Source of the DNA: a phage
Direction: 5' to 3' (one strand)
Sequence record: PZ445440.1
Length of the DNA stretch: 64,000 bases
In this document: piece by piece, positions 2,950-60,977 of the stretch
Layout: each line of letters begins with the position of its first letter
Position numbering within the stretch: the stretch's first letter is position 1
Notes under the pieces: generated by a model
Seen by the model: the letters and a program-made list of their open reading frames with translations, nothing else
Database searches by the model: none
Told to the model about the DNA's origin: nothing
Made by a program: the position numbers and the translations under genes

Positions 2950-3213
2950 TCATATCTCAACTTCCGCAAGTTCCATATATCCTTTGTTGATAACCTCTTT
3001 AAGGTCTTTAGAAAGAATAACACTAAAATGGTCGTTCATATGTCCATTAACTAAACGAGTTATTTCGGCTTCAGATGACATATAAGGCACGTCTGAGTCC
3101 CAATGAGATAGACCCAAATGGGTATAAATCATCCCTTCGTCATCTGTGGTGTTGTACATTGAAACAAACTCACCGGTCACTTTATGTTTTGCGTAGAAAA
3201 ATTTAAATTTCAT
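2950..3213 (-). CDS. hypothetical protein (87 aa)
   Basis: ORF in compact minus-strand gene array. Confidence 0.55.
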   Translation of the reverse strand: MKFKFFYAKHKVTGEFVSMYNTTDDEGMIYTHLGLSHWDSDVPYMSSEAEITRLVNGHMNDHFSVILSKDLKEVINKGYMELAEVEI

Positions 3214-3239
3214 GATGTTATCCTCTTTTAGATAGGACT

Positions 3240-3269
3240 ACTATATCATAGTCCTACTTAGTTGTAAAC
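3240..3269 (-). promoter_or_regulatory. T4-type early promoter with -10 embedded in inverted repeat TAGGACTA/TAGTCCTA
   Basis: Minus strand GTTTAC (3269-3264), 18-bp spacer, TATAGT; palindrome arms at 3233-3240 and 3249-3256. Confidence 0.45.
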
Positions 3270-3281
3270 ACTTTTATGAAA

Positions 3282-3839
3282 TTAAAGATGAAGATACCAC
3301 CCGTTGTAGTTGCTCTTGCGGACGATTTTCTTTAGGTCTTCATGGTCTCCCACGAACTTTATAGAATAAGAGAAGACGTCAGGTGAGGTTTCTTTGACAT
3401 CTAATATAATAATGCAATCTGCGACTCGATGATTCAAGAAGGGCCCTATATTGATTCCATTACCACCTGGGTAATCACCACTGTATCCTGTGGTAACCGA
3501 AATCCATTTAGAATCTATCTGGTGCGTCTTGACTTCTACACGAATTCCACAATACTTGGGATGGGCTAACACGTCCCATGCATACGTGTACGGGTCTTCT
3601 ACATCTTCAATACCTTTATTAACATATCCGTCTAGCCAATTTGCTACTACATACTCTGCAAAGACCGCAACCTTACAACGTCGAACAACGCCTTCTTTTA
3701 TTTGTCCTGGATCTTGTTTCAACGAGTACCGAGCAGTATCAGCGATCTTAACCTTCATTTCGCTAGTCAAAAACTCATTCGACAGGATAAATGTCGGAAG
3801 ACTCTTCAGCCTCAACAACCCCAAGTTCGTCTTTACCAT
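3282..3839 (-). CDS. denB: putative endonuclease IV (DenB-like) by position and size; start placed at internal Met with GAGG SD
   Basis: 185 aa from MVKTNLG..., same length as T4 DenB as I recall; immediately downstream of rIIB as in T4; sequence identity not verified. Confidence 0.45.
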   Translation of the reverse strand: MVKTNLGLLRLKSLPTFILSNEFLTSEMKVKIADTARYSLKQDPGQIKEGVVRRCKVAVFAEYVVANWLDGYVNKGIEDVEDPYTYAWDVLAHPKYCGIRVEVKTHQIDSKWISVTTGYSGDYPGGNGINIGPFLNHRVADCIIILDVKETSPDVFSYSIKFVGDHEDLKKIVRKSNYNGWYLHL

Positions 3840-4062
3840 AGATACCTCTGATGTGTAGTTCGCCAAAATAAATGCGGTCTCCTTCTTCAAGATATTCTGC
3901 ATCTACCGGTGGGATTTCAATAACAACTTCGTCGCATTCTAACCAGCCGTAGTGTGCATCGCCAGGATGTTTTACCAATTTAGCACAATAAACTGATTTA
4001 CACTTATGGTGACCACGAAGATTAGCAATTTTGGATTCTGATACGTCAAATGGATGAATCAT
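3775..4062 (-). CDS. hypothetical protein (95 aa); doubtful because it overlaps the denB-like start by 65 nt
   Basis: ORF following the rIIB terminator; track ORF N-terminus (4063-4101) is the terminator hairpin, so start moved to ATG at 4062. Confidence 0.3.
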   Translation of the reverse strand: MIHPFDVSESKIANLRGHHKCKSVYCAKLVKHPGDAHYGWLECDEVVIEIPPVDAEYLEEGDRIYFGELHIRGIYGKDELGVVEAEESSDIYPVE

Positions 4063-4072
4063 AATTACCCCT

Positions 4073-4099
4073 AAAGAAAAAAAGGGGACCGAAGTCCCC
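4073..4099 (-). terminator. intrinsic terminator after rIIB (GGGGAC-UUCG-GUCCCC + U-tract)
   Basis: Plus strand aaagaaaaaaa-ggggac-cgaa-gtcccc; on minus-strand RNA a UUCG-tetraloop hairpin followed by U7. Confidence 0.65.
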
Positions 4100-4104
4100 A
4101 ATTA

Positions 4105-5040
4105 TTATTCTGCAAATAATTCAGTAACGTCTGAAATTACTTCATAACGACAAGTACGCATCTTAGCATCACCATAGTCAACCGGGATGGATACAACATC
4201 ACGTGGATGAACTTTAACTTTCACAACTTTATCTGAGCTTGAACCAAAGTGGCGAATATAAGATTTAGCACAAACGTGGAGACCGCGAGAACAGGTTTGA
4301 GTATCATCGTCGTTAACTCGAGTACGAGGCATTGAAACAACTTTACCTGGGGAGTTATCAAATGTACCACTATAGCAGTCTAAATAGTCCTTACGAACTA
4401 CTTTCCATGCATAGAAATGTCCGTCTTCAGTGATTTCAATATCATTTGCAACCAAGAAGTCGAATAAACGTTGTACAGCTTTTTCGCTCGGGTTTTCTAA
4501 CAGGTTTTCAAGGAACGGCAGATAGAATTTAAAGTCTTCACCTTTTTCCATGGAATCAATAATACGGTTAACCAGTCCTGAACGAATCTCTATACCTTGA
4601 TAAAATAAACTACCACCTTCAATAGTAACATTACCATCAACAAACTTAGTAATAGCTTTCTTGACGTTAATAAGTTCGACAGCTTTACTAAGGTTTCCTG
4701 CGACCAGATTAGCTTTAATTTCTTCAAAATTTGCATGACTTGATGGGGTCGCATTGTATGCTACGCGTCCTTCAATAATTGAAATAAATTTAGATGACGC
4801 GTTCCATACGATTTCAGGACGGTGTCCGCCGATAATAGGTTCATCATTTTCTGGGATCTGTTCTTCGTCTTCAAATTCAGCTGCTTTCTCTTCAGCTTTA
4901 AAATTCTTAACAATCTTACGAAGAGTATCTGTTGAAATGTCGAAGTAATCGGCAATTTCTTTACGAGTCCATTTGCCTGATTCAACCAGGCCGTAAGCTT
5001 CTAACTGTTCTTCTTGGGACAAGCATTTAATATTGTACAT
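4105..5040 (-). CDS. rIIB: rIIB membrane-associated protein
   Basis: 311 aa (T4 rIIB 312 aa as I recall); adjacent to rIIA; synteny. Confidence 0.85.
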   Translation of the reverse strand: MYNIKCLSQEEQLEAYGLVESGKWTRKEIADYFDISTDTLRKIVKNFKAEEKAAEFEDEEQIPENDEPIIGGHRPEIVWNASSKFISIIEGRVAYNATPSSHANFEEIKANLVAGNLSKAVELINVKKAITKFVDGNVTIEGGSLFYQGIEIRSGLVNRIIDSMEKGEDFKFYLPFLENLLENPSEKAVQRLFDFLVANDIEITEDGHFYAWKVVRKDYLDCYSGTFDNSPGKVVSMPRTRVNDDDTQTCSRGLHVCAKSYIRHFGSSSDKVVKVKVHPRDVVSIPVDYGDAKMRTCRYEVISDVTELFAE

Positions 5041-5049
5041 AATGTTTCC

Positions 5050-7263
5050 TTATTTGGCCGCTTCCACGGCCTTCATGAATTTAACGATTTGAGCGACCTG
5101 TTCTTTGGAAAGAGTACCACGTCGTCCCATGTATTCTGACACAATATGATAATTGGTTTCGAATTCAATAACCATTTTATCATCATTATCGTAAGCATTA
5201 TCTTTAAGCTTATCGAAAATTTTAGCACACAATTCTAACTTCTTATTCAGGTCTGTATTAGTAGCACCTGCGAATCGATTCCATCCCCAACGATTATTTA
5301 CTGTTGAGAGTTTTGCAAAGTCTTTACTGATTTCTTTGTTCTTAGAGCTAAAATACTTACTAAGGAAATTAAGCTCTTCATTACGAGTAATATGATTCAA
5401 ATAAGGCTGTGCTCTACGACTTGGTGATACATACTCATCATAATCTACTTTATCGATTAGCATAATATAGTCATTAATTGATTTTTCGAACAAGCATTCT
5501 ACTTCACCAAGTTTACGAACTTTCTTAGCAATCTGTGGACGAACTACATTGAACTCTTTAATACCTGACAAATCAGCAATACGGGTCAAGAAATTAGAGT
5601 CATAGTTCAACCAACCTTTATCTGCGTCAAGACATTCAGCATTAGAACGATTACGAACTATAGCATAACCTTGGATTTCATCAGCTTCACTCGCTGGAAT
5701 AAAGAGATCTTCTGATACCCAAACATCGTTTTCATTCTTAAAGAACCGATGAGCACTTGGCGATTTAGGACGAGGCTCATTAGTCCGTTTCCTGACTTCA
5801 ATCCATGGCTTAACGATTTGTAAAAGCTCTGAAGTCTTGTACATGTTAATGTTGTCGCCATCAAAGATAACTTTAAGGCGTTCCAGAAGTTTCATTGCAT
5901 CTTCGTCTGTAGGGTCAACGAATAGTACGCTTTTACCAAAACCGCGTGGAACTTTACCAGTTAATTTAACCTCGTCTTTAGACATTTCAATTGAATTAAG
6001 AGCTCGCATTAATGGAACGCGTCCCTTAACGTCGTCAATAACAATTTCAACGTTTTTAATGTTAATGCCAATCAGACTGTTAATTGAAATGGTTGCCGTT
6101 GAGCTACCGCTTTCACGAATACGACGAAGACGAGGGGATTCAACGATATCGTATACGACGCCAAGATTACACCATTCAGGTCCCATTTTAAAACGTTTGT
6201 ACAACTCAGAATAAGTTAGTTGTTCTTTAGAGTATTTCAGTGATTCAATATTAGACCCGGCCTTTTCCATGTATTTACGAGCGGTATAGCCAAGAGAATC
6301 AATTTCACGGAACACATGACGTGGGTATTTACAATCAATCCATTTCTTAGAATCTTCAGCGAACAATTTAGCATCGATTTCTGCAACGCGTTTATGGATA
6401 TTTGCTACTGTACGTTTATCAAATGACAATGCTTCACGAGACGGGGCTACATCTAGTTCACCCATAGGGAATTTAATATAAGCTGTAGTGCACCGCGTCA
6501 TCATCCATGTTTGTTCTTTAATAACACTTCCGATTGGATATACAATACCACCATAAACAGCCATGATATTACCACGTTCACCCCATGGAGCTTCCTTGGC
6601 CAAATATACATCGTCAAATTCTGGGAAGTATTTAATATCTTTAACACCGCGAACTTCTGCAATATCACCTAGAGGACGCATAACATATGCAATTTCGGAT
6701 GCGAACTTTTCAAAATCTTCCGGGTTAACCGGTACAACTACTTCTACACCCGTACGGTCATTAGGGCCCATCTTATCTACAAAGGTCGGCTTAATTTGTG
6801 GACCTGTGTCATCTTGGTAGATTACGTAACCACGAACTTCGCCATTGTGATAAGACGTAAGGTTAAACGTATCAGTATATGCTAGTGGAGCTTTAGAACC
6901 GAGTCCGAATCCACCAATGAAATCGTTACTCGATGTTTTAGTTGAAGCAAAATATGAGTTATAAATTCCTGGTTCTTCATCATTACCACGAATAGTGAAA
7001 TCACTCATACCAGGACCAAAGTCTCGAACTACAAAACGTGGGTCTAAACGACCTGGAGCCTGAACAATAAATTTATCAGTGCAACCATTAAGAATTTGTC
7101 CATCTATACAGTTTGTGATTAATTCACGTACACAAGCCAATTCTTTGTTTGTATAAAGGTCATTAGACAAAATCTTATAAACTTTACTATTGCCTTGAAT
7201 AGTGAATGCTGTGCTCTTACCGCCTGAACCAATAATCGTTTCTTTAGCCGTTTCAATAATCAT
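5050..7263 (-). CDS. rIIA: rIIA protein (GHKL ATPase-like N-terminal domain)
   Basis: 737 aa; N-terminus MIIETAKETIIGSGGKSTAFTI...LYTNKELACVRELITNCIDG resembles T4 rIIA. Confidence 0.9.
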   Translation of the reverse strand: MIIETAKETIIGSGGKSTAFTIQGNSKVYKILSNDLYTNKELACVRELITNCIDGQILNGCTDKFIVQAPGRLDPRFVVRDFGPGMSDFTIRGNDEEPGIYNSYFASTKTSSNDFIGGFGLGSKAPLAYTDTFNLTSYHNGEVRGYVIYQDDTGPQIKPTFVDKMGPNDRTGVEVVVPVNPEDFEKFASEIAYVMRPLGDIAEVRGVKDIKYFPEFDDVYLAKEAPWGERGNIMAVYGGIVYPIGSVIKEQTWMMTRCTTAYIKFPMGELDVAPSREALSFDKRTVANIHKRVAEIDAKLFAEDSKKWIDCKYPRHVFREIDSLGYTARKYMEKAGSNIESLKYSKEQLTYSELYKRFKMGPEWCNLGVVYDIVESPRLRRIRESGSSTATISINSLIGINIKNVEIVIDDVKGRVPLMRALNSIEMSKDEVKLTGKVPRGFGKSVLFVDPTDEDAMKLLERLKVIFDGDNINMYKTSELLQIVKPWIEVRKRTNEPRPKSPSAHRFFKNENDVWVSEDLFIPASEADEIQGYAIVRNRSNAECLDADKGWLNYDSNFLTRIADLSGIKEFNVVRPQIAKKVRKLGEVECLFEKSINDYIMLIDKVDYDEYVSPSRRAQPYLNHITRNEELNFLSKYFSSKNKEISKDFAKLSTVNNRWGWNRFAGATNTDLNKKLELCAKIFDKLKDNAYDNDDKMVIEFETNYHIVSEYMGRRGTLSKEQVAQIVKFMKAVEAAK

Positions 7264-8713: not shown

Positions 8714-10529
8714 AGGACATCCATTCTTTACGAAGTTCTGAATCATCACCCATCAACATTTCAAAGAGTTCTTTCCAATTTTCAGGAAGTTTAACTACGT
8801 CGTACACAGGGTTCTGAATCATTTCACGATATTCTGACTTTTCAAGGGAGCCTAATCCCTTGATGTATCGAATACTATGCTTAGGCAGTGTATCTTTAAC
8901 TTCTTCATACTCAGCTACAGTATAAAACCATTTTTGAGTTTTGCCAATTTGTGCAATAATTACAGGCGTTTTAACAAAGCGAATACGTCCTTGTTCGAAC
9001 AATTCAGGCCAATTACTAAAGAAAGCAAGCAAAGCCGGATAGATACTTCCAAGACCGTCGTGATCTGCATCAGTCATAATTGCAATATTACGATAGTTCG
9101 TATTCTCTGCCTTTTCACCAAGAATAAGACCTGTGATAGCACAGATATCGAAGAGCTCTTTGTTCTTCATCATATCAGCATATGACATACCCCAGCTATT
9201 CATCACCTTACCACGTAATGGGAATCCGCCGTGTAGTTCACGGTCACGAACATCAATGAGATAACCAATTGCCGAATCACCTTCTGTTAAGAACAATGTC
9301 GTATCTGCATCTTTACCACATTGGTTAGCTTTAATATGCTTATGAACCTTAGCTTTAGTTGCCTTTTTAGCTGCTTTAGTTTCTGCAGCCTTTTCTGCTG
9401 CCAATTTACGAGCTAATGCTGCTTCAACAATAGGCATAATCAAGGCTTCGTTTTTAAGAAGCGCCTGAGCAATTTTCTTAGCATCTAATTGGATATGATT
9501 ACGAATATCACCATACGTTGACGTTAAACGTTCTTTAGTCTGAGAATCAAAACGCATGTTGCTCATGTCTCTAATAAACATCAACATTGTGAGGCATTCT
9601 TTAACACGAGCTTTAGTGACTTCAATACCCTTATATTTCTTTTTAATACCCGGCAAAAGATGTTCGCAGATATCATCCATTACACATTCAACATGATGAC
9701 CACCATTTTTAGTATGGATGTTATTCACATAAGTTAAATGACGGAAGCCATCTGGTGATGTTGTGAATGCTATAGAGACTTTATCATTTTCTTGAATGAT
9801 GTTATCTTCACCAAATTGTTTAGCAAATCGTTTAAAATTACCATCAACCTTTTTACCATTAAATGTGAACTTGATGTCAGGATAAACGACTGCCAATGTT
9901 TGAAGTCGGTCTAAAGTAATATCTAAATAAATTTGAGATAAATTATGCTCTTCAAATGAAGTGAAATCAGGAGTGAAGATTACTTTAGTGCCTCTACCTT
10001 TAGATTTCTTAGAAGACCATGATTTGTTTTCCATTCCGTTTGAACAGTTAACAGTGATTTCATTTTCGCCATCTGACGTGATGCCTGTAAACAACGTAGA
10101 GAAGATATTAGTTAAACTACTCCCGACACCGTTCATACCACCAGTCTTGCGTTCAGAGTCATCGCCAAAGTTACCACCGGCCTTTGGAATAGTCCAGGCT
10201 GCTACAGGCCCAGGAATTTGTTCACCTGTTTGGTCGGTAACTAAACCTTGAGGAATACCACGTCCGTTATCTTCCACCGAAACTTGATTATTTTTAATTT
10301 GCACATCAATTTTATTTGCAAACTTAAATGATGTACGAATAGCTTCATCAACCGAGTTGTCAATAATCTCATCGATTAATTTAACCAGACCAGGAACATA
10401 TTCAACTTGTTGATATTTACCAAACAAAAAACGCTCGTGGGCTTCTTTAGCCGAAGAACCAATATACATACCACTACGTTTCTTAATATGTTCTACATCT
10501 GACAATACCTTAATTTCATTTTTAATCAT
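8712..10529 (-). CDS. 39: DNA topoisomerase II large subunit, fused gp39+gp60 equivalent (GyrB-like ATPase + Toprim)
   Basis: 605-aa continuous ORF; ATPase motifs (IDNSVDEA, GGNFGDDS) and Toprim region (LTEGDSA, DADHDG); no split or bypass element. Confidence 0.9.
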   Translation of the reverse strand: MIKNEIKVLSDVEHIKKRSGMYIGSSAKEAHERFLFGKYQQVEYVPGLVKLIDEIIDNSVDEAIRTSFKFANKIDVQIKNNQVSVEDNGRGIPQGLVTDQTGEQIPGPVAAWTIPKAGGNFGDDSERKTGGMNGVGSSLTNIFSTLFTGITSDGENEITVNCSNGMENKSWSSKKSKGRGTKVIFTPDFTSFEEHNLSQIYLDITLDRLQTLAVVYPDIKFTFNGKKVDGNFKRFAKQFGEDNIIQENDKVSIAFTTSPDGFRHLTYVNNIHTKNGGHHVECVMDDICEHLLPGIKKKYKGIEVTKARVKECLTMLMFIRDMSNMRFDSQTKERLTSTYGDIRNHIQLDAKKIAQALLKNEALIMPIVEAALARKLAAEKAAETKAAKKATKAKVHKHIKANQCGKDADTTLFLTEGDSAIGYLIDVRDRELHGGFPLRGKVMNSWGMSYADMMKNKELFDICAITGLILGEKAENTNYRNIAIMTDADHDGLGSIYPALLAFFSNWPELFEQGRIRFVKTPVIIAQIGKTQKWFYTVAEYEEVKDTLPKHSIRYIKGLGSLEKSEYREMIQNPVYDVVKLPENWKELFEMLMGDDSELRKEWMS

Positions 10530-10570
10530 GTTGTCTCCTCGTTATGAAGGTATTCTATCATCCGAAATCT

Positions 10571-10594
10571 AAAGCAAAAAGGGCCGAAGCCCTT
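10571..10594 (-). terminator. intrinsic terminator (GGGC-UUCG-GCCC hairpin + U-tract)
   Basis: Plus aaagcaaaaa-gggc-cgaa-gccc at the stop of ORF 10593-11018. Confidence 0.5.
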
Positions 10595-11018
10595 ATTTAA
10601 ATTTAATTTTCTGAAGTGCATCAATTGCAGCCAAACGCCCTTGTTCACTTTTAACTGTAATGACCACATCGCCTGATACGATCACCGAACCATCAACAAA
10701 TTCTATAGAGCCTTTTTTGAAATCGACAGCTGTATCTGGTTCCGGAACTTCTTCAAAGAATTTAAATTCTGCACCATAAAGCAGAATATCACCTTGCATA
10801 CTATGAATAGTTCGGCCATAATCGCCTACGGCTTCTACAGCAATAACCGAAACACCGTAGCCAATCATCTCTTCCACAATAAAATCTTTGGACAATAAAG
10901 TAGTATGCAGATTAGTATTAAGACGTTTACCAGTCGTATTAAGAATTCTCAAGAAATTATCTTCCTGTCCTTTGATAATACGATATTTCTTACCAACTTC
11001 AAAACCTTTAAAAGCCAT
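10593..11018 (-). CDS. hypothetical protein, possibly GoF-like by size and position (141 aa)
   Basis: 141-aa ORF upstream of gene 39; T4 goF occupies the equivalent position; identity not verified. Confidence 0.4.
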   Translation of the reverse strand: MAFKGFEVGKKYRIIKGQEDNFLRILNTTGKRLNTNLHTTLLSKDFIVEEMIGYGVSVIAVEAVGDYGRTIHSMQGDILLYGAEFKFFEEVPEPDTAVDFKKGSIEFVDGSVIVSGDVVITVKSEQGRLAAIDALQKIKFK

Positions 11019-13405: not shown

Positions 13406-13436
13406 ATTATACTCCATCCATCCTTGGATGTAAAAC
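13406..13436 (-). promoter_or_regulatory. early promoter, member of the conserved 29-bp module family (variant -35)
   Basis: Plus ttatactccatccatccttggatgtaaaac; near-identical to modules at 13963, 55771 and 56792. Confidence 0.45.
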
Positions 13437-13962: not shown

Positions 13963-13992
13963 ATTATACTCCAACCATCCTTGGTTGTAAAC
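13963..13992 (-). promoter_or_regulatory. early promoter, conserved 29-bp module (GTTTAC-AACCAAGGATGGTTGGAG-TATAAT)
   Basis: Plus ttatactccaaccatccttggttgtaaac; identical module upstream of three other genes. Confidence 0.55.
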
Positions 13993-35260: not shown

Positions 35261-35300
35261 ATTTCTCTCATTTAATTAGTTGGCCATCCTTGGCATTATA

Positions 35301-53524: not shown

Positions 53525-53821
53525 TTATTGTTCTACCCATGAACAAGAGACTTCAAAATCAGGACCACCGTATTCCCAGTGATATTCACCAACAGGAATC
53601 CAGTCACCGTGCTCGTTTTCTTCATAGTCCTCAGGCTCAAGGCCAACGAATCGCCATTGGACACCGATGATTCGATTACCCATCATTACTCGAAATTCGC
53701 CCCATGGATTATCGATAGCATACTGAATATCGTTCTTGGCACGAGAGCACATTTCTTGATATAATAAAGCTTCTAATTCACCCTGGTCATAAGGGCCAGG
53801 GAAAGTTAAATCAATACTCAT
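53525..53821 (-). CDS. hypothetical protein (98 aa)
   Basis: ORF in gene array. Confidence 0.55.
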   Translation of the reverse strand: MSIDLTFPGPYDQGELEALLYQEMCSRAKNDIQYAIDNPWGEFRVMMGNRIIGVQWRFVGLEPEDYEENEHGDWIPVGEYHWEYGGPDFEVSCSWVEQ

Positions 53822-54081
53822 TTAAAATATTCTCGTAGTTGGTCAAATCCACCAATGTGACTTCCATCAGGAGCAAACACTTGAGGCATAGTCAATCCGA
53901 CTTGTGATTCACGTCCAAGCTTAACCAGAAGCTCAGCAATTTTCTCATCATCAAAAACACCTTTTTCTGGCATAACATTAATGAATTCGAACGGCTGTTT
54001 CTTAACAGTCAGCAATCGTTTCGCATTATCACAATAAATGCATTTATGAATAGTAGAGTCATACCCGTACACTTTAAACAT
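53818..54081 (-). CDS. nrdC: thioredoxin/glutaredoxin NrdC
   Basis: 87 aa from MFKVYGYDSTIHKCIYCDNAKRLLTVKKQPFEFINVMPEKGVFDDEKIAELL...; nearly identical to T4 NrdC from memory. Confidence 0.9.
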   Translation of the reverse strand: MFKVYGYDSTIHKCIYCDNAKRLLTVKKQPFEFINVMPEKGVFDDEKIAELLVKLGRESQVGLTMPQVFAPDGSHIGGFDQLREYFK

Positions 54082-54487
54082 TATTTTTCCTTTCATCGAT
54101 TAAATATGCAATGCCAAATACAATACATGTAATAAAACCTGTGATACAGATAGAAACCAACAACACCGTACCAAAGAACCAAATCAAGTTATCTTTAGTA
54201 GTTTGTTTGATATCCATCTCACGAATTTCTATAGCTATCGTATCACCTTTATTCAGAAGCGTATAAAACGACGGTGATACACGCCTGTCAAAAACTCGTC
54301 CTTGTTCATCTTTATAAACTGCAATAAATTCTAATTTAGAATATTTTCCTGTAGATTGGCCTGAGATTAATTCCACTACCTCCACAGGAATTACTTTAGT
54401 TTCCATGTAAGTATTCTGGCTGTTCCAAATGAATGGAATGATGGCAAAAACTAAAGCTGCAATAAAACAACGAAGGCTATATCTCAT
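54074..54487 (-). CDS. membrane protein (137 aa)
   Basis: N- and C-terminal hydrophobic helices. Confidence 0.55.
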   Translation of the reverse strand: MRYSLRCFIAALVFAIIPFIWNSQNTYMETKVIPVEVVELISGQSTGKYSKLEFIAVYKDEQGRVFDRRVSPSFYTLLNKGDTIAIEIREMDIKQTTKDNLIWFFGTVLLVSICITGFITCIVFGIAYLIDERKNNV

Positions 54488-54792
54488 TATAATGTTCTCT
54501 CAAATTTGTGGAAGCATTTACGGCATTTCAATTTCAAGTTATCAGTGGTCCAGTTAACCAGTTGGACTTGGATAGTTCCACATTCCGGACATGGATGTTT
54601 TGCTGCCGATTTGGCAGCATTTTCACGTCGTTCAACCATTTTCATGATTTCGTTCCATGCCGGAGGAACGAACTCTTCTTCACTATGAATTTTATCTCGT
54701 TGAACAAATTCAATCTTTGAACTATCGTCAATAAACTTAACCAAGCGGTGATTAGTGTTCATATCAATATCTTCTAAAAGACGTAGTTTCAT
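54487..54792 (-). CDS. zinc-ribbon protein (101 aa)
   Basis: CPECG...CRKC motif pair. Confidence 0.55.
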   Translation of the reverse strand: MKLRLLEDIDMNTNHRLVKFIDDSSKIEFVQRDKIHSEEEFVPPAWNEIMKMVERRENAAKSAAKHPCPECGTIQVQLVNWTTDNLKLKCRKCFHKFERTL

Positions 54793-55742
54793 TATAACAC
54801 CTCAATGGCATTTCGTAAACCATCCGCTTTAGCATTCAGAGCTTTTAACGATTTAGTTTGTTCTGCAATCTGGGCTTCGACTTCTTTCAGACGAGATTTG
54901 AGATATTCGCGTTCTTCTCTTAAGTTATCAACTTTTTCTGCTTTAGGCTCTTTAATAGACTTAGGTTTATATGTATTAGGGTTCTTCAACTTAATTTGAA
55001 TGCGAGAACTGAATAACATCGAACCGTTATCTTCGGTTTCACTGTGCATTTCTACCACATCCATGATTCTTAACATCATGCGAAGTTTATAAGACAGCGA
55101 ACGAACGGTTTTATTGTGCTTCTTAATTTCTTCAGCTTTCATGGTGCCGAGATTACGTGAGTAGTAATAAGGAACCTGGATATCAATTGATAATGATGCG
55201 TTACCATTACCAGTTGGTTTGAATACTGCAGTAACCCAATCTTTAACATGAACTTTATTTGTACGATCATCGCCGCCTGTGAATAATTTACAAGAATGTT
55301 TAAAAAGCATATTCACTTGGTTATTGAATTCACAAGCAAATTTATCAGCAAATTTAGTTTCAGGAATGGTAGTTAACCATTCAGCCAAATGAGTCTTTTT
55401 AACATCATTAACAATAGTGAATTCAACCAAATCGGTTTTAGTTGTCACAGATTTAATAAAGCTCGGCTTCATAAAGTTTTTAATGTTATCGCGAGCTACA
55501 GTAGAAGATAATAAACGAGAACGTTTGAACCATTGAAGCAACGTCCCTAACGAATGAGAATACGCATTTTGAGTATCTTTACAGATATGATTTTCTTGGC
55601 CTATGTATGTACCAAAATCGCGAAGAATACCACTTACTACATCTCGGTGTGGAACATCAAATCCTAGTGCACCAGAAGCACGTTGGGCATGAACGTTAGC
55701 GATAAGACCTGCAAAGTATTCAATGTAATGTGAACGTGTCAT
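54792..55742 (-). CDS. hypothetical protein with C-terminal coiled coil (316 aa)
   Basis: ATG with GAGG SD; heptad-like C-terminus EEREYLKSRLKEVEAQIAEQTKSLKALNAKADGLRNAIEVL. Confidence 0.65.
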   Translation of the reverse strand: MTRSHYIEYFAGLIANVHAQRASGALGFDVPHRDVVSGILRDFGTYIGQENHICKDTQNAYSHSLGTLLQWFKRSRLLSSTVARDNIKNFMKPSFIKSVTTKTDLVEFTIVNDVKKTHLAEWLTTIPETKFADKFACEFNNQVNMLFKHSCKLFTGGDDRTNKVHVKDWVTAVFKPTGNGNASLSIDIQVPYYYSRNLGTMKAEEIKKHNKTVRSLSYKLRMMLRIMDVVEMHSETEDNGSMLFSSRIQIKLKNPNTYKPKSIKEPKAEKVDNLREEREYLKSRLKEVEAQIAEQTKSLKALNAKADGLRNAIEVL

Positions 55743-55770
55743 AATATTTTCCTCTCGTTAAGATAGATTC

Positions 55771-55800
55771 ATTATACTCCAACCATCCTTGGTTGTAAAC
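55771..55800 (-). promoter_or_regulatory. early promoter, conserved 29-bp module
   Basis: Plus ttatactccaaccatccttggttgtaaac (minus GTTTAC-N18-TATAAT). Confidence 0.55.
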
Positions 55801-55804
55801 TATT

Positions 55805-56764
55805 TTATGATTTTAATGCATTCATTGCGTTAAAAAGTTTAGAATACTGCAACTGGAGATTCGTTACAACACTTTGAGCATCACGAAGCTTAGCTTGTGC
55901 TTTGTCAAGTTCAACAGACAGTTGGTCTACAGTAGCCTTGATTTGGTTGTAATGATAATCTTCGGCTGGAAGAAGGTCATTAGAAACATTTAGTTTTACT
56001 GCAGACAGTTTGCACACATTTGGTAAACCTTTAAACATTGATTTACCTGAAGTAGAATAAGCACTTAGGACTTCAGCCTGTTCAATTGGGGTCCCAGTAA
56101 GCGATGCTTCGAACGTTGCATTTTCCTTTTTAAGATTTTGATAGTATTCAGAGTCTTTGTGCCACCATGGCGCAGGAACCTTTTTACCAATAGATACACG
56201 AGCCTGGATAGCGATATGGCCCTTATTCTTGATAGGGTCGATAATATTAAGCTCACGAGAATAAATTGCTTTAATCTCATGGATATTATCGCCTAACACT
56301 TCTAGCGCTTGGTGGAATACACGAGCAACGTTATCATTCTTAGGTTTATACGTAAGAGTGAACTCGTTCTCACTGATAACCATGATTTCTAACTTATCGT
56401 AAGTGTACTTAAGATGCTTCATGTTAACCGCTTGAGGACGAATACGAGAAGCAATGGCCATCAGATTGTTAAGGTTATTCCGGAACTGCTTAGCGAAATA
56501 TTGTCCTTCACCACCAATACAAAAATTACGAAGTTTCTGTTTGGCTAATAAACGGCTGAACTCACCATTTTTAATGAACTCTTTAACGGGTGTGTTAGTA
56601 ACGCATTCAAATTGAGTAAACTTACGAGAATTAATCCCATAATACGAACAGATTTCCTCAATCTCTTCAGGAGTCTTTACAGGCATACGGATAGGATTAG
56701 GTCCTGGAGTATATGCGTTCGAGGTAAATTCTTTGATAAGTTCTTTACGTGTAATAAAAGCCAT
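55805..56764 (-). CDS. hypothetical protein with C-terminal coiled coil (319 aa)
   Basis: ATG with GAGGAA SD; own promoter module. Confidence 0.65.
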   Translation of the reverse strand: MAFITRKELIKEFTSNAYTPGPNPIRMPVKTPEEIEEICSYYGINSRKFTQFECVTNTPVKEFIKNGEFSRLLAKQKLRNFCIGGEGQYFAKQFRNNLNNLMAIASRIRPQAVNMKHLKYTYDKLEIMVISENEFTLTYKPKNDNVARVFHQALEVLGDNIHEIKAIYSRELNIIDPIKNKGHIAIQARVSIGKKVPAPWWHKDSEYYQNLKKENATFEASLTGTPIEQAEVLSAYSTSGKSMFKGLPNVCKLSAVKLNVSNDLLPAEDYHYNQIKATVDQLSVELDKAQAKLRDAQSVVTNLQLQYSKLFNAMNALKS

Positions 56765-56791
56765 TTTATATTCCTCATGTTGAAAAATTTA

Positions 56792-56820
56792 TTATACTCC
56801 AACCATCCTTGGTTGTACAT
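56792..56820 (-). promoter_or_regulatory. early promoter, conserved 29-bp module (variant -35)
   Basis: Plus ttatactccaaccatccttggttgtacat. Confidence 0.5.
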
Positions 56821-57656
56821 CATTCCTTAAGAAGTTTTACTACCTGAATAAGATTAGCTCGTTCTGTTTTATTTTTACCGTTTAAGCCTGCTAATCGTGA
56901 GATTTCATCGTCAGTCTGTTGAATAGTTACATTAAGTTCGTTAATCAAAGCTTCAAAGTATTTGATTTGCTCAGCATGTTTTGATTCAAATTTCTGAACC
57001 GGAATAACGTCTTGGTTTAGTTCATCAATAAGGTCTTTAAGAGCATCTTCTTGGTTGATATCATATTCAACTTCTTTTATTTCTTCAACGAGCTCGTCTT
57101 TATATCTAACGTCTTTTAGTCCTGGTGCTGGTCCTGAAATCTCTTCTTTAAGAGTACAAACATATCCAATACGGTATCCAATGCCGGCTCGCTTGATATC
57201 AACTTCGTCGATAAATCCACAATGTTTAAGCCCGGAGCCGATTAGGTCAAAATATCCTTGACGTCGTCCTTCAAACGTTACATGAACTACTAAGACAGTT
57301 TTACCTGCAACCTTTTGAAGCTCACATTTATAAAAGTCAGTTGAACCTGAATAACGTGGATGAGTTTTAAAGTTCATCTGACGATCTAGGCCCATTTGTA
57401 AACGCGCTGTTACGGCCAGAAAACGTGTTTGGTTCTCGTTAAGATGAGCAACAATCCATTTCAAAGGCATTTTACATTGGTCACGACAGAACAAATCAAC
57501 ATATCCAAGATTACGAAGGATATTGTTAGAGTTAATCATCGACAGAACGTTAAGTTTATTCAGCGCGCTGAAGATTCCATCAGCCATTGATTTTCCGTAA
57601 CCTTTACACGCTTTAATAAGTGCTCGCGGCAGATTAGTATAGATTTCAGACGGCAT
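56820..57656 (-). CDS. hypothetical protein with C-terminal coiled coil (278 aa)
   Basis: ORF in array. Confidence 0.6.
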   Translation of the reverse strand: MPSEIYTNLPRALIKACKGYGKSMADGIFSALNKLNVLSMINSNNILRNLGYVDLFCRDQCKMPLKWIVAHLNENQTRFLAVTARLQMGLDRQMNFKTHPRYSGSTDFYKCELQKVAGKTVLVVHVTFEGRRQGYFDLIGSGLKHCGFIDEVDIKRAGIGYRIGYVCTLKEEISGPAPGLKDVRYKDELVEEIKEVEYDINQEDALKDLIDELNQDVIPVQKFESKHAEQIKYFEALINELNVTIQQTDDEISRLAGLNGKNKTERANLIQVVKLLKE

Positions 57657-57879
57657 ATGAAAATCAAATTTACTCTAACCAGTAATTGATGAACTTGGAT
57701 AGCAATTTGTTCATAATTAAGTGCTCTGCGATCATTATGGTCTTTAAACCACACTTTAATCTGTGAAGCACATAAACCGTTAATTTCATGTTTTACCGCA
57801 TCAGATGTAATGCTCATAACTATTTCCTCAGATTGAATTGGAACTCAAAACCATTATAACCCGTCCTTGGGTAAAGCGT

Positions 57880-58407
57880 TTATGCGTGAACCGTCTTTAA
57901 ACGTTCTTCAAATTTCCGAAGAGTACTAATACGTTCTGCTTTCTGTTTTGTATAGTTTGCAATACGTTCTGAAGTGAGAGCGTATCGTTCGTTTACTGTT
58001 TCTTTCATGAAGTCAGTGATTTCACGAGAAGCTTTAATTTCATCAAACTTATCGAGTACTGCCTGATCTTCAGCAATTAAATTTTCGTACATCTCGATAT
58101 CTTTCTTGATGAAGTCGATATCTTCCTGGGTTACTTTGGATAAACGAGATGCTTTATCCTTTTTGTATTGCTCGTTAGTTTCACGAGACCAGAATAATGT
58201 ACGGTTTTTGTTGGTGTTTTTGTAGACTTCCACAATTCCAACTGAATCGATGATAACAATCCAATTCCAGCGAGATTTGAAAATCTGACCTCCGTCCACG
58301 GTAATCTCGTTACCATAAGCAACATCATTAAAGAACTTGCTTTGTGCTTCAGATTTAAATTTACCGTCGTTATAATTTACCAGGTTGAAAATATCTTTAG
58401 CGTTCAT
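57880..58407 (-). CDS. hypothetical protein (175 aa)
   Basis: ATG with upstream promoter. Confidence 0.6.
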   Translation of the reverse strand: MNAKDIFNLVNYNDGKFKSEAQSKFFNDVAYGNEITVDGGQIFKSRWNWIVIIDSVGIVEVYKNTNKNRTLFWSRETNEQYKKDKASRLSKVTQEDIDFIKKDIEMYENLIAEDQAVLDKFDEIKASREITDFMKETVNERYALTSERIANYTKQKAERISTLRKFEERLKTVHA

Positions 58408-58891: not shown

Positions 58892-59872
58892 TTATTTCAG
58901 TAAAGTTACTTCAGAGATTTCCTCCCAACCATCTTTATCAGTTGAAATAAAATCTGCTACATAAAGAGCCGTACGTAATGATACATTGCGAAGACGAGAT
59001 ACGTTAGCCTTCATCCAAGATAATGCTTTATACGTTTCTGCATCAGTCAGACCACGTTTCTGCATCATGTCAGTAGATAATATTACATCTTCAACTCGAA
59101 CCATAATCTCTTCATTAGAGTGTACTCCAAGGTCAAGATACACTGAACGAGATACTAAAGCTTGAAGGTGTGGAGCAAGTTTAGAACCGCGTTCTAACTC
59201 TTTATCGATATCAACGTTTGTAATGAAAACGATAGTACCTTCAAACTCAAATTCTTTATCGATACCCTTATCATCAAGATAAGATGATGCAGTGCTCCAA
59301 CAAACTTTGCGTTTATCACCGGTATCTAATGCGGCTTTAAGAAGGTTCAAGATGTCCATATCTGAGAATACGTCAACGTCGTCGATTAAGAGAACGCTGT
59401 CTGCATCACGGTTGAGCCAAAGTTGTTCGTAAAGGCCAATACCAGAGATTTTACCATTAATACTTTTGTATTTGATGAAACCATTATCATTAGCATTATT
59501 AAGTGCTTTATCCAGAGAATACGTCTTACCAATACCTGCTGCACCTGAAATAATGAGTGAACGAATTTTGCCATCGATAATGCCATTCGTCATCATGTTC
59601 ATTACTTTAAAGCGTTTGTTGATACGAGTTTTCATATCTTCAGTGCTTTCAATAACTGCAACTGGTGACGTCTCAACTCCTTCCATTACGATGTCTGATT
59701 TGAAGACCCATACTCCACGTTCAGAGCCATCAATCATAACGAAAATTTTACCATCACCTAAGTGGGAACATTCAGGATTAAGCTTTGCCGGGAACCATGT
59801 CTTTGTGGCAACATAAGAACCAGAGATTTCGTTATTACGATAGATACCTTTTTTGATTTGAACGTTGAACAT
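58892..59872 (-). CDS. P-loop ATPase (326 aa from ATG with GGAG SD)
   Basis: Walker A ISGAAGIGKTYS, Walker B VLLIDDVD; track start is TTG, the ATG 4 codons in has a better SD. Confidence 0.65.
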   Translation of the reverse strand: MFNVQIKKGIYRNNEISGSYVATKTWFPAKLNPECSHLGDGKIFVMIDGSERGVWVFKSDIVMEGVETSPVAVIESTEDMKTRINKRFKVMNMMTNGIIDGKIRSLIISGAAGIGKTYSLDKALNNANDNGFIKYKSINGKISGIGLYEQLWLNRDADSVLLIDDVDVFSDMDILNLLKAALDTGDKRKVCWSTASSYLDDKGIDKEFEFEGTIVFITNVDIDKELERGSKLAPHLQALVSRSVYLDLGVHSNEEIMVRVEDVILSTDMMQKRGLTDAETYKALSWMKANVSRLRNVSLRTALYVADFISTDKDGWEEISEVTLLK

Positions 59873-59911
59873 TTTATTCTCCAAATTTACTCATTTCGTT
59901 TCGATAGGTCT

Positions 59912-59987: not shown

Positions 59988-60977
59988 TCATTTATAGTAC
60001 GAATTGTGGTTTTCTAAGTAGACTTGTTCAAGGAAGTCATCCCAGAAACTCATATCTACTTTTTGTTGCATACCATTCTTAGCAGCTTGTTCTGCTGCAT
60101 GTTCAACTTGGTCAACGATATCTTCTAGGAATTCCTGTATGGTTTTAAACGTATGTTTACCAAGCTTAACATCGAGAATAAATGGAGCATCCTGAAGCGG
60201 GTAAACCAGGTCGCCGGTTTTGTAAATTTCTAGGAGCTGAAGTCCACCACGGCATGCATGACTCAATGCTTTCCAATCAATACCTTCATTGGCTTCTGCC
60301 TTACGAGCACGTTCACCGTAGTTCTCTTCAAGTTTAACCAGGATGGCATTGAACTCTTTATTGGTTAACGTGTCTTGGAATTTACGGTCCAACAGACTAT
60401 AGAATGTTTGCTTACCTGTTTTCTCATTTTCGGTTTCAACCCACGAAGCAAATTCACCTACAGGCAGAACATTCTTCATATGTGATAAACGAATTACTGC
60501 ACCATTATCAAAGTATCGTCCCCATTCATTAGAACGTTTAAGGGCTTGACGAAGAACAGCCAGTCGAGAACCCTTGACACCGTATTTAGAAGCTTGCTTA
60601 CGGACATACCCTAAATAAGATTTCATGTTAGTGGTATAGAAACGAGACCTGTTATCTTGAATATACTTCCATACATCAGGCAAATCAGATTTAACTACTA
60701 GACTTTGTGGAGTGTGAAGCATATCTAATGCGACGGTTTCACCATCAGCAGCTAGTTTAAAGAAATATTTGAGACTATACAACTCATGGTCCACGTCGTC
60801 TTTTGTGTTCTTAGAAGATGTGTTATTCGTGTTCTTGCTCATGTGTTCTTTAACGTTACCGGTCAAGATATCACGAGCATGAGGGACATAAATTTCTTTA
60901 AAATCGACGTCAGATTCAGGAGTAGACGTTCCATAAAGGTGGCTACCAAAGTAAGCCTTAACAATCGTTTTCATCAT
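59988..60977 (-). CDS. predicted nucleotidyltransferase (Pol-beta/minimal NTase superfamily-like)
   Basis: 329 aa; N-terminal GSHLYGTSTPESDVDF fits the GS-x(9-13)-DxD NTase motif. Confidence 0.55.
   Translation of the reverse strand: MMKTIVKAYFGSHLYGTSTPESDVDFKEIYVPHARDILTGNVKEHMSKNTNNTSSKNTKDDVDHELYSLKYFFKLAADGETVALDMLHTPQSLVVKSDLPDVWKYIQDNRSRFYTTNMKSYLGYVRKQASKYGVKGSRLAVLRQALKRSNEWGRYFDNGAVIRLSHMKNVLPVGEFASWVETENEKTGKQTFYSLLDRKFQDTLTNKEFNAILVKLEENYGERARKAEANEGIDWKALSHACRGGLQLLEIYKTGDLVYPLQDAPFILDVKLGKHTFKTIQEFLEDIVDQVEHAAEQAAKNGMQQKVDMSFWDDFLEQVYLENHNSYYK

Follow-up and report, generated by a model that had tools for sequence, protein, structure and literature searches.

This report concerns three neighboring genes on the minus strand of a 64,000-nt stretch of phage DNA (sequence record PZ445440.1), hereafter called the window. 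They are labeled A, B, and C, and belong to the nrdC.3, nrdC.5, and nrdC.6 types, respectively, i.e., to genes known from phage T4. On balance, we favor the view that they form a duplicated family of coiled-coil-tailed proteins, bounded by promoter cassettes and acting early in infection against host defenses. In this scheme, three genes that arose by ancient tandem duplication would each encode a fast-evolving alpha/beta head followed by a better-conserved C-terminal coiled coil of ∼50 residues, and each would have its own promoter, namely early cassettes for A and B, and an element resembling a middle promoter for C, which is broken. The cassettes, being direct repeats, would provide the joints at which the nrdC.5-type gene is gained or lost among sister phages. 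As for the proteins, each variable head would bind its own host immune target, in the way that T4 NrdC.5 counters the Dsr1 defense, and the common tail would make the protein oligomeric, thus helping it to engage oligomeric targets.

Uncharacterized families of this kind were already known in T-even phages, and the promoter cassette is of a known type. What goes beyond the existing annotation is the proposed link between the families, the tail as their hallmark, the precise insertion or deletion (indel) of the nrdC.5-type gene, and two independent frameshifts in nrdC.6-type genes. Together they offer a frame for ∼1-kb genes that are listed as "hypothetical" in hundreds of T-even genomes, and that are often mislabeled "thioredoxin".

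Genomic Setting and Identity of the Three Genes

The 3.6 kb spanning the three genes match Escherichia phage ChristianSchoenbein (Bas46, MZ501056.1; Straboviridae, Tevenvirinae, Mosigvirus) at 100%, and many other Mosigviruses are 96-97% identical over the same 3.6 kb. The genes of the region are all on the minus strand and are flanked by nrdC, the thioredoxin gene (53818-54096), and by homologues of nrdC.10 (58892-59884) and nrdC.11 (59988-60977). The region corresponds to the accessory "nrdC.x" block of T4, as an earlier note on this DNA had guessed when it proposed that comparison, and the three minus-strand open reading frames (ORFs) listed in that note are all present (54792-55742, 316 aa; 55805-56764, 319 aa; 56820-57656, 278 aa). 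The genes to which these ORFs belong are the following.

54792-55742, minus strand: gene A (bas46_0188), 316 aa; T4 nrdC.3 is its orthologue and T4 nrdC.4 a distant paralogue.
55805-56764, minus strand: gene B (bas46_0189), 319 aa; DUF7235/nrdC.5-type, present in some sister phages and absent from others.
56820-57817, minus strand: gene C, nrdC.6-type; 331 aa if intact, but here in two pieces, an 85-aa ORF (57560-57817) and a 278-aa ORF (56820-57656).

Transcription runs from C through B to A. The order nrdC.6, nrdC.5, then nrdC.4 and/or nrdC.3 is common to T4, VR7, TH54, CUA3, and CJY920, and the Bas46 array is without nrdC.4 and nrdC.7. Gene A is 55.5% identical to T4 nrdC.3 (BLASTP, E 2e-117), its similarity to T4 nrdC.4 being weak, and it matches phrog_1435 over its full length (residues 1-316, E 1e-104); T4 nrdC.3 (5e-101) and T4 nrdC.4 (6e-168) match the same profile. 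Gene B passes the Pfam model DUF7235 (PF23882, gathering score 30 bits) with 411 bits (E 4e-123, residues 15-318 on model positions 1-307). T4 NrdC.5, which is also phrog_2351, reaches 421 bits on this model (E 5e-126), and the two proteins are 25% identical to each other (BLASTP, E 2e-10). Genes A and C stay below the PF23882 threshold, and T4 nrdC.3 matches the model with its tail alone (E 0.18). Finally, the gene C protein is about 30% identical to T4 nrdC.6 (BLASTP, E about 1e-18).

In many phage GenBank records, nrdC.3-,.4-,.5-,.6-, and.10-type genes bear the label "thioredoxin", which evidently spread by way of the gene names and has no basis in thioredoxin similarity. A different kind of mixture is seen in the Tequatrovirus CJY920 (3016-5927 of its locus), where T4-type nrdC.6 and nrdC.5 are followed by a Mosigvirus-like nrdC.3, 75% identical to that of Bas46 and 60% to that of T4, and where nrdC.4,.7,.8, and.9 are missing; this array is a mosaic showing exchange between genera.

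C-Terminal Coiled Coils

Coiled coils were scored with a re-implementation of the COILS type that used the MTIDK matrix. GCN4 and tropomyosin scored as positive controls, thioredoxin and lysozyme as negative ones, and each tail was set against composition-preserving shuffles, 500 for the score and 2000 for the 3.5-residue hydrophobic periodicity. The tails are located as follows.

54795-54953, minus strand: coiled-coil tail of A, residues 264-316; P about 1.0; seven uninterrupted heptads ending GLRNAIEVL.
55808-55960, minus strand: coiled-coil tail of B, residues 269-319; P 0.998.
56823-56975, minus strand: helical tail of C; heptads at residues 228-256 of the 278-aa ORF, then GLNGKNK as a break, and a short last helix with VVKLLKE at its end.

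Both A and B have heptads over at least 28 residues that exceed the composition controls and are predicted to be helical. The score of A was reached by 1/500 shuffles and its periodicity by 1/2000, and for B the counts were 0/500 and 0/2000. The tail of C (P 0.68-0.87) is borderline by score, which 33/500 shuffles reach, and significant by periodicity (5/2000). Hence, the claim of the earlier note that all three ORFs end in a coiled coil, for which it had suggested coiled-coil prediction as a check, is clear for the 316- and 319-aa proteins but weaker for the third. AlphaFold2 draws a single long terminal helix at residues 275-315 of A (predicted local distance difference test, pLDDT, 73-83) and at 267-318 of B, and in both models this is the best-scored part.

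Such a signal could in principle be an artefact of composition, with charged, Leu/Ala-rich ends that cluster by chance, and the moderate tail of C, whose score is matched by 33/500 shuffles, can be cited in its favor. We find this explanation barely credible, because A beats 499/500 and B 500/500 shuffles, heptad periodicity is significant in all three tails, and the AlphaFold2 models agree on single long helices. In addition, C-terminal coiled coils are confined to 5/68 of the window's minus-strand ORFs of 100 aa or longer, and four of the five stand side by side here (genes A, B, and C, and the nrdC.8 homologue). The feature is also kept among the homologues: 25 of 27 family members from 11 phages carry it (P at least 0.68 in the last 60 residues), in line with the common coiled-coil tail that the earlier note had proposed for the family, and the exceptions are the frameshifted T4 nrdC.6 and CUA3 nrdC.6 (P 0.14).

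The tails end in a common motif, R-x-x-L-x-x-A-I/L-x-x-L-K, and the identity of tail vs head in the three families is 63% vs 54%, 39% vs 21%, and 60% vs 26%. Between genera, the heads are 21-26% identical; in the C family, the tail is 58-60% identical across genera and the head 22-26%.

The nrdC.8 homologue (57880-58407, minus strand, 175 aa) contains coiled-coil segments too; as a candidate member of the family it was rejected, since no profile iteration recovered it (E 0.16-0.44). Another observation regards the last codons of A (GLRNAIEVL plus stop), within which a promoter-like site is found (54791-54819, minus strand; TTTACG, 17 bp, TATAAT, with TG). This site overlaps the start of the next gene and may place an extra nucleotide-level constraint on the conserved tail end.

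Relatedness of the N-Terminal Heads

The earlier note regarded the N-terminal domains as dissimilar and suggested a modular family, in which unrelated heads were each joined by recombination to one oligomerization tail. Several results agree with this proposal: BLASTP gives no match among A, B, and C, the tails are better conserved than the heads, hhalign with shallow profiles (close homologues only) aligns the tails and not the heads, a direct comparison of the A and C heads is not significant, and the region does shuffle DNA at repeats.

The heads are nevertheless linked by deeper family alignments, drawn from four or five genera and stripped of the tails before hhalign was run. The comparison of the nrdC.3/4 and nrdC.5 families then gives a score of 39.9 (P 5e-5), and that of the nrdC.5 and nrdC.6 families 26.2 (P 0.007), whereas the controls, i.e., reversed profiles and the nrdC.10 and nrdC.11 families, score 11-19 (P 0.09-0.77). 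The aligned core of the head has a motif, SRLL...L(K/R)NF followed by F..F..N...L.A..R, that is common to all three. Iterative hidden Markov model (HMM) searches covered 320 ORFs of 14 loci, assembled as a local set that included the whole window. With the tails kept, they lead from any of the three families to the same 26-27 proteins and to no others; with the last 60 residues cut (242 ORFs), the nrdC.3/4 or nrdC.5 seeds still reach all three types and pull in no false positive.

Lengths, domain order, and synteny agree among the three types, and the intact proteins have 316-331 aa. Since the tail-less hhalign and HMM comparisons link the heads, and lengths, order, and synteny match, whole-gene tandem duplication followed by divergence appears to fit better than head swapping. 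A and B are very probably diverged paralogues, and C likely belongs with them. Common ancestry of the three heads is thus supported but not proven by these comparisons, with a strong link between nrdC.3 and nrdC.5 and a weaker one to nrdC.6. The joining of unrelated heads to one tail is, in comparison, an unlikely origin: the tail-less iterations bring the three types together to the exclusion of other ORFs, the weak matches run collinearly along proteins of equal length, and the recombination joints that can be observed lie between genes, not at the boundary of head and tail. Modularity does exist at the level of DNA, where promoter cassettes bound a whole-gene indel. A further idea of the earlier note, that the heads might be Bro-N or KilA-N domains, found no support, as neither the three proteins nor their T4 counterparts have such a Pfam match at E ≤ 1, and PDB profile searches likewise gave none.

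Distribution among T4-like Phages

The T-even phages of E. coli have three or four copies of the gene, and T4-like phages of other genera have one syntenic copy of 324-352 aa, as in Kosakonia Kc304, Serratia X20, Klebsiella KpV477, Enterobacter KKP_3262, and Acinetobacter Konradin. These single-copy homologues come from Winklervirus, Jiaodavirus, Karamvirus, and one Acinetobacter phage, and all of them carry the same kind of coiled-coil tail. Those of Kc304, KpV477, and KKP_3262, the three compared with the family profiles, each match two of the three and in this way bridge the families. No family member was found beside nrdC.10 at the loci inspected in Aeromonas and Cronobacter phages.

When the nrdC.3 profile was run exhaustively as an HMM against 1.84 billion representative proteins, 5 matched, and there are hence no cellular homologues from which a function could be borrowed. 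Word-indexed protein searches returned close relatives only (33, 19, and 4 proteins), and a related-locus search of viral contigs returned 2 loci. Judging from the exhaustive HMM search, the family is confined to T-even-like phages.

Promoter Cassettes and the Gain or Loss of Gene B

The putative promoters of the three genes are listed below.

55771-55799, minus strand: early-promoter cassette of A; TTTACA, 17 bp, TATAAT; 11/12 in a pattern scan.
56791-56819, minus strand: early-promoter cassette of B; TGTACA, 17 bp, TATAAT; immediately adjoins the stop codon of gene C.
57853-57881, minus strand: element upstream of C; AAACGCTTTA, 13 bp, TATAAT, with a degenerate AAGGA hairpin.

The identical 29-bp promoter that the earlier note had assigned to the first two genes is identical over 27 bp (TACAACCAAGGATGGTTGGAGTATAAT), but the 29-mers agree at 28/29 positions (TTTACA vs TGTACA). 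Four copies of the 27-mer are present in the window, vs 0 expected by chance, and each is laid out as a −35 box, 17 bp, and a −10 box. From their sequence, both cassettes would be sigma-70-type early promoters, and for this reason early expression right after infection is expected. The strong Shine-Dalgarno sequences that the earlier note had reported for A and B are of the GAGG type and lie 8-9 nt upstream of both ATGs. Its description of three promoter-headed genes holds for A and B, and for the third only when the true start at 57817 is considered, and then with a different element, in which CGCTTTA precedes TATAAT by 13 bp (pattern match). The MotA box of middle promoters is a TGCTTtA-like sequence about 12 bp upstream of the −10 element. 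The element of C recurs as CGCTTTATACCAAGGATGGTATAAT, with a 12-bp gap, upstream of nrdC.6 in VR7, CUA3, and TH54, and upstream of nrdC.7 in T4. It looks MotA-box-like and would resemble a middle promoter.

The cassettes of A and B are direct repeats 1020 bp apart that flank gene B. The junction predicted from recombination between them, composed of the end of C, one cassette, and the start of A (271 nt), is contiguous in 21/154 phage records at 96.7-98.9% identity, with gene B precisely absent, and gene B is present in 134 records. The junction of the phages lacking B falls within the cassette repeat, and in phage p000v an intact C is directly followed by A. As judged from this comparative footprint, the cassettes act as recombination points for gain and loss of the nrdC.5-type gene. 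For T4-like phages, the indel is a clean case from nature of genes exchanged by way of cassettes, and the natural B-plus and B-minus Mosigviruses make it possible to ask directly if the nrdC.5-type gene determines plating on E. coli carrying Dsr1.

The closest known counterpart of the cassettes is the promoter early stem-loop (PeSL) element, the basis of a model of modular shuffling in T4-like phages (Arbiol et al. 2010, PMC2839356; Comeau et al. 2014, PMC4122927). PeSLs are repeated sigma-70-type early promoters (TTTACW-N17-TAYWAT) located between accessory genes of a hyperplastic region, and recombination between neighboring copies explains a whole-gene indel. The repeated promoter and the recombination footprint of PeSLs are both found here, but the upstream terminator stem-loop is not: in PeSLs the stem-loop stands just upstream of the promoter and is a terminator, whereas the hairpin of Bas46 (CAACCA-AGGA-TGGTTG at 55780-55795) is inside the spacer, between −35 and −10, and has 6 bp, an AGGA loop, and no U-tract. 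This hairpin is part of the minimum-free-energy fold, its folding z-scores of −1.3 to +0.2 are those of a structure that is not unusually stable, and a terminator scan of the cassettes found none.

Disruption of Gene C

The 278-aa ORF, which the earlier note had taken as a gene in its own right, corresponds to the distal portion of a longer gene, of 331 aa, whose start is at 57817. Its ATG at 57656 has neither a promoter nor a Shine-Dalgarno sequence, and the true start is preceded by a GAGGAAA ribosome-binding site. The match to phrog_2257 is divided, with profile positions 1-47 on the 85-aa ORF and 55-303 on the 278-aa ORF, and no single ORF of Bas46 gene C gives a full-length match. Since this profile match is split over two ORFs by a +2 insertion, gene C is a disrupted member of phrog_2257. 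Phage NBG1 has an intact 331-aa gene at the same place, which matches phrog_2257 over positions 1-303 (E 1e-127), and the DNA alignment with it reveals the lesion.

57675-57676, minus strand: 2-bp (AG) insertion that puts gene C out of frame after codon 47; which AG of AGAG is the added one is ambiguous.

Among the 144 phage records that hold this stretch, the insertion occurs in that of Bas46 only. This points to either a mutation private to Bas46 or an error of assembly; programmed frameshifting of gene C was considered and rejected, given the absence of the insertion from the other 143 records.

A second lesion is found in the T4 reference nrdC.6 (T4 locus 10067-10894), which has a 1-nt deletion relative to CJY920 nrdC.6 (locus 3016-3906), a protein of 296 aa with a coiled-coil tail. 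The deletion removes the tail from the T4 protein, and yet the DNA that encoded it persists, with 98% identity, as far as the start of nrdC.5. Because CJY920 nrdC.6 retains the tail that T4 lost by this 1-nt deletion, the coiled coil is ancestral to all four T4 types. The frameshifts in the nrdC.6-type genes of Bas46 and T4 are independent.

Putative Role against Host Defense

Srikant et al. (2022, PMC9391042) report that T4 nrdC.5 restores plating on cells bearing Dsr1, a sirtuin NADase defense, and that T4 nrdC.5 alone, supplied on a plasmid, rescued a T4 clone with genome deletions on such cells. Of the products encoded nearby, gp49.2 blocks OLD (PMC13096335) and NrdC.1 blocks Septu (bioRxiv 10.1101/2025.11.20.689424). 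Because T4 NrdC.5 counters Dsr1 and these neighbors block OLD and Septu, A, B, and C are likely early-expressed oligomeric anti-defense proteins, a role assigned to them by analogy. The family combines early promoters, dispensability, repeated inactivation, presence/absence polymorphism, a copy number of 1-4, and fast-evolving heads. Sequence-profile searches of Pfam, NCBIfam, PADLOC, and PDB returned only DUF7235 and coiled-coil noise.

Gene B is like T4 NrdC.5 in that both match PF23882 over the full length and agree in array position, length class, C-terminal coiled coil, and being early dispensable genes. It is unlike T4 NrdC.5 in sequence (25% identity), in being bounded in Bas46 by two near-identical cassettes, and in being missing from some sister phages. 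T4 NrdC.3 and NrdC.4 (phrog_1435) and NrdC.6 (phrog_2257), hypothetical early proteins, are encoded in the same order and orientation as A and C; the difference is that the nrdC.6-type gene of Bas46 is frameshifted near codon 47, whereas the T4 reference nrdC.6 has the 1-nt deletion that cuts the tail.

Several findings count against our reading. Starting from the heads, the nrdC.3/4 and nrdC.6 families score 18.8 against each other (P 0.095), the tail-less nrdC.6 seed stalls with a best bridging match at E 0.005, the first bridging matches in the iterations are near the inclusion threshold, and both PHROGs and Pfam hold the three families apart. As for structure, the AlphaFold2 models, made from alignments of close homologues, are poor (pLDDT 51 for A and 42 for B), and with them Foldseek finds in BFVD their own orthologues at template modeling (TM) scores of 0.15-0.32, and then noise, so that the heads could not be assigned to a fold. 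The oligomerization of A, B, and C is a prediction from sequence, and the activity of the promoters is deduced from consensus matching. Regarding function, none is known for nrdC.3-, nrdC.4-, and nrdC.6-type proteins, and because gene B is only 25% identical to T4 NrdC.5, the same target, Dsr1, cannot be assumed for it.

A contrasting possibility is that the three genes are real paralogues with a role in host takeover or housekeeping, e.g., as a scaffold or regulator on the host nucleoid, in transcription, or in nucleotide metabolism. Their location among nrd and other early genes suits such a role, three of the four T4 types are without a known function, long coiled coils are frequent in scaffolds and regulators, and the anti-Dsr1 result is one complementation experiment in one paper (PMC9391042). 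We nonetheless hold this role to be rather unlikely. The phages can dispense with these genes, which have often been lost or broken and number 1-4 copies across genera, and no member was seen beside nrdC.10 at the loci inspected in Aeromonas and Cronobacter phages; from one genus to another the heads diverge very fast (21-26% identity), and neighboring genes have proven anti-defense roles.

It can also be asked if the array encodes the subunits of one hetero-oligomer, in which the paralogues co-assemble via their homologous tails. The tails do end in the same motif, and the genes are adjacent and probably co-expressed, but 21 natural phages keep A and C without B, C is broken here, and the C-type tail is truncated in T4. 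Moreover, one copy suffices in other genera, and on Dsr1 cells T4 nrdC.5 alone rescued the T4 deletion clone, which may or may not have lost other nrdC.x genes. An assembly of this kind is thus highly improbable.

Returning to the anti-defense reading, a broader version of it can be offered tentatively. It is possible, if speculative, that nrdC.3, nrdC.4, nrdC.5, and nrdC.6 are a single superfamily of coiled-coil-tethered immune antagonists, derived from one ancestral gene that would still be single-copy in the T4-like phages of Klebsiella, Enterobacter, Serratia, and Acinetobacter, with expansion by tandem duplication, each paralogue retargeted to another host defense protein, and the promoter cassettes with their conserved spacer hairpin serving as the joints for swapping single antagonists from phage to phage. 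If all the paralogues were immune antagonists, they would constitute a candidate list to be matched with defense systems, of relevance when choosing therapeutic phages.

The same neighborhood, from 49.x to nrdC.x, hosts the anti-defense clusters of T-even phages: gp49.2 against OLD, NrdC.1 against Septu, and the dmd-tifA-adfA "anti-TA island" (TA, toxin-antitoxin). These genes and A, B, and C are alike in being early, accessory, and variable, and in being lost or amplified under selection. In contrast, gp49.2, NrdC.1, and the anti-TA proteins are small and unrelated in sequence, and none combines a ∼270-aa head with a coiled coil. A functional analogy exists with DSAD1, the phage inhibitor of DSR2, which neutralizes a SIR2-type NADase defense; DSAD1 differs in having no sequence relationship to these proteins, in coming from another phage group, and in targeting DSR2 and not Dsr1.

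Other Occurrences of the Hairpin and the Cassette

Spacer hairpins with an AGGA loop were seen at 55780-55795, 56800-56815, 13972-13987, and 13415-13430 of the window, and at five other phage loci, T4 and CJY920 included. Six different stems, with changes that compensate each other, are seen across copies and phages (CAACCA/TGGTTG, CATCCA/TGGATG, TATACCA/TGGTATA, TGCCACA/TGTGGTA, AGCCA/TGGCT, and CTTCCA/TGGAGG), and these hairpins are thermodynamically weak. In the leader of another gene (35279-35293, minus strand), a GCCA-AGGA-TGGC hairpin sits just downstream of TATAAT, so that the AGGA hairpin is not tied to one promoter position.

Two more copies of the module, one exact and one with 2 mismatches, are located at 13406-13434 and 13963-13991 on the minus strand, where they head two tandem small genes downstream of dexA. 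These two genes and the next one have a common C-terminal motif, SDQWVEDG..LYN(I/V)VF.G.F.VV, and look like another paralogue array with repeated cassettes.

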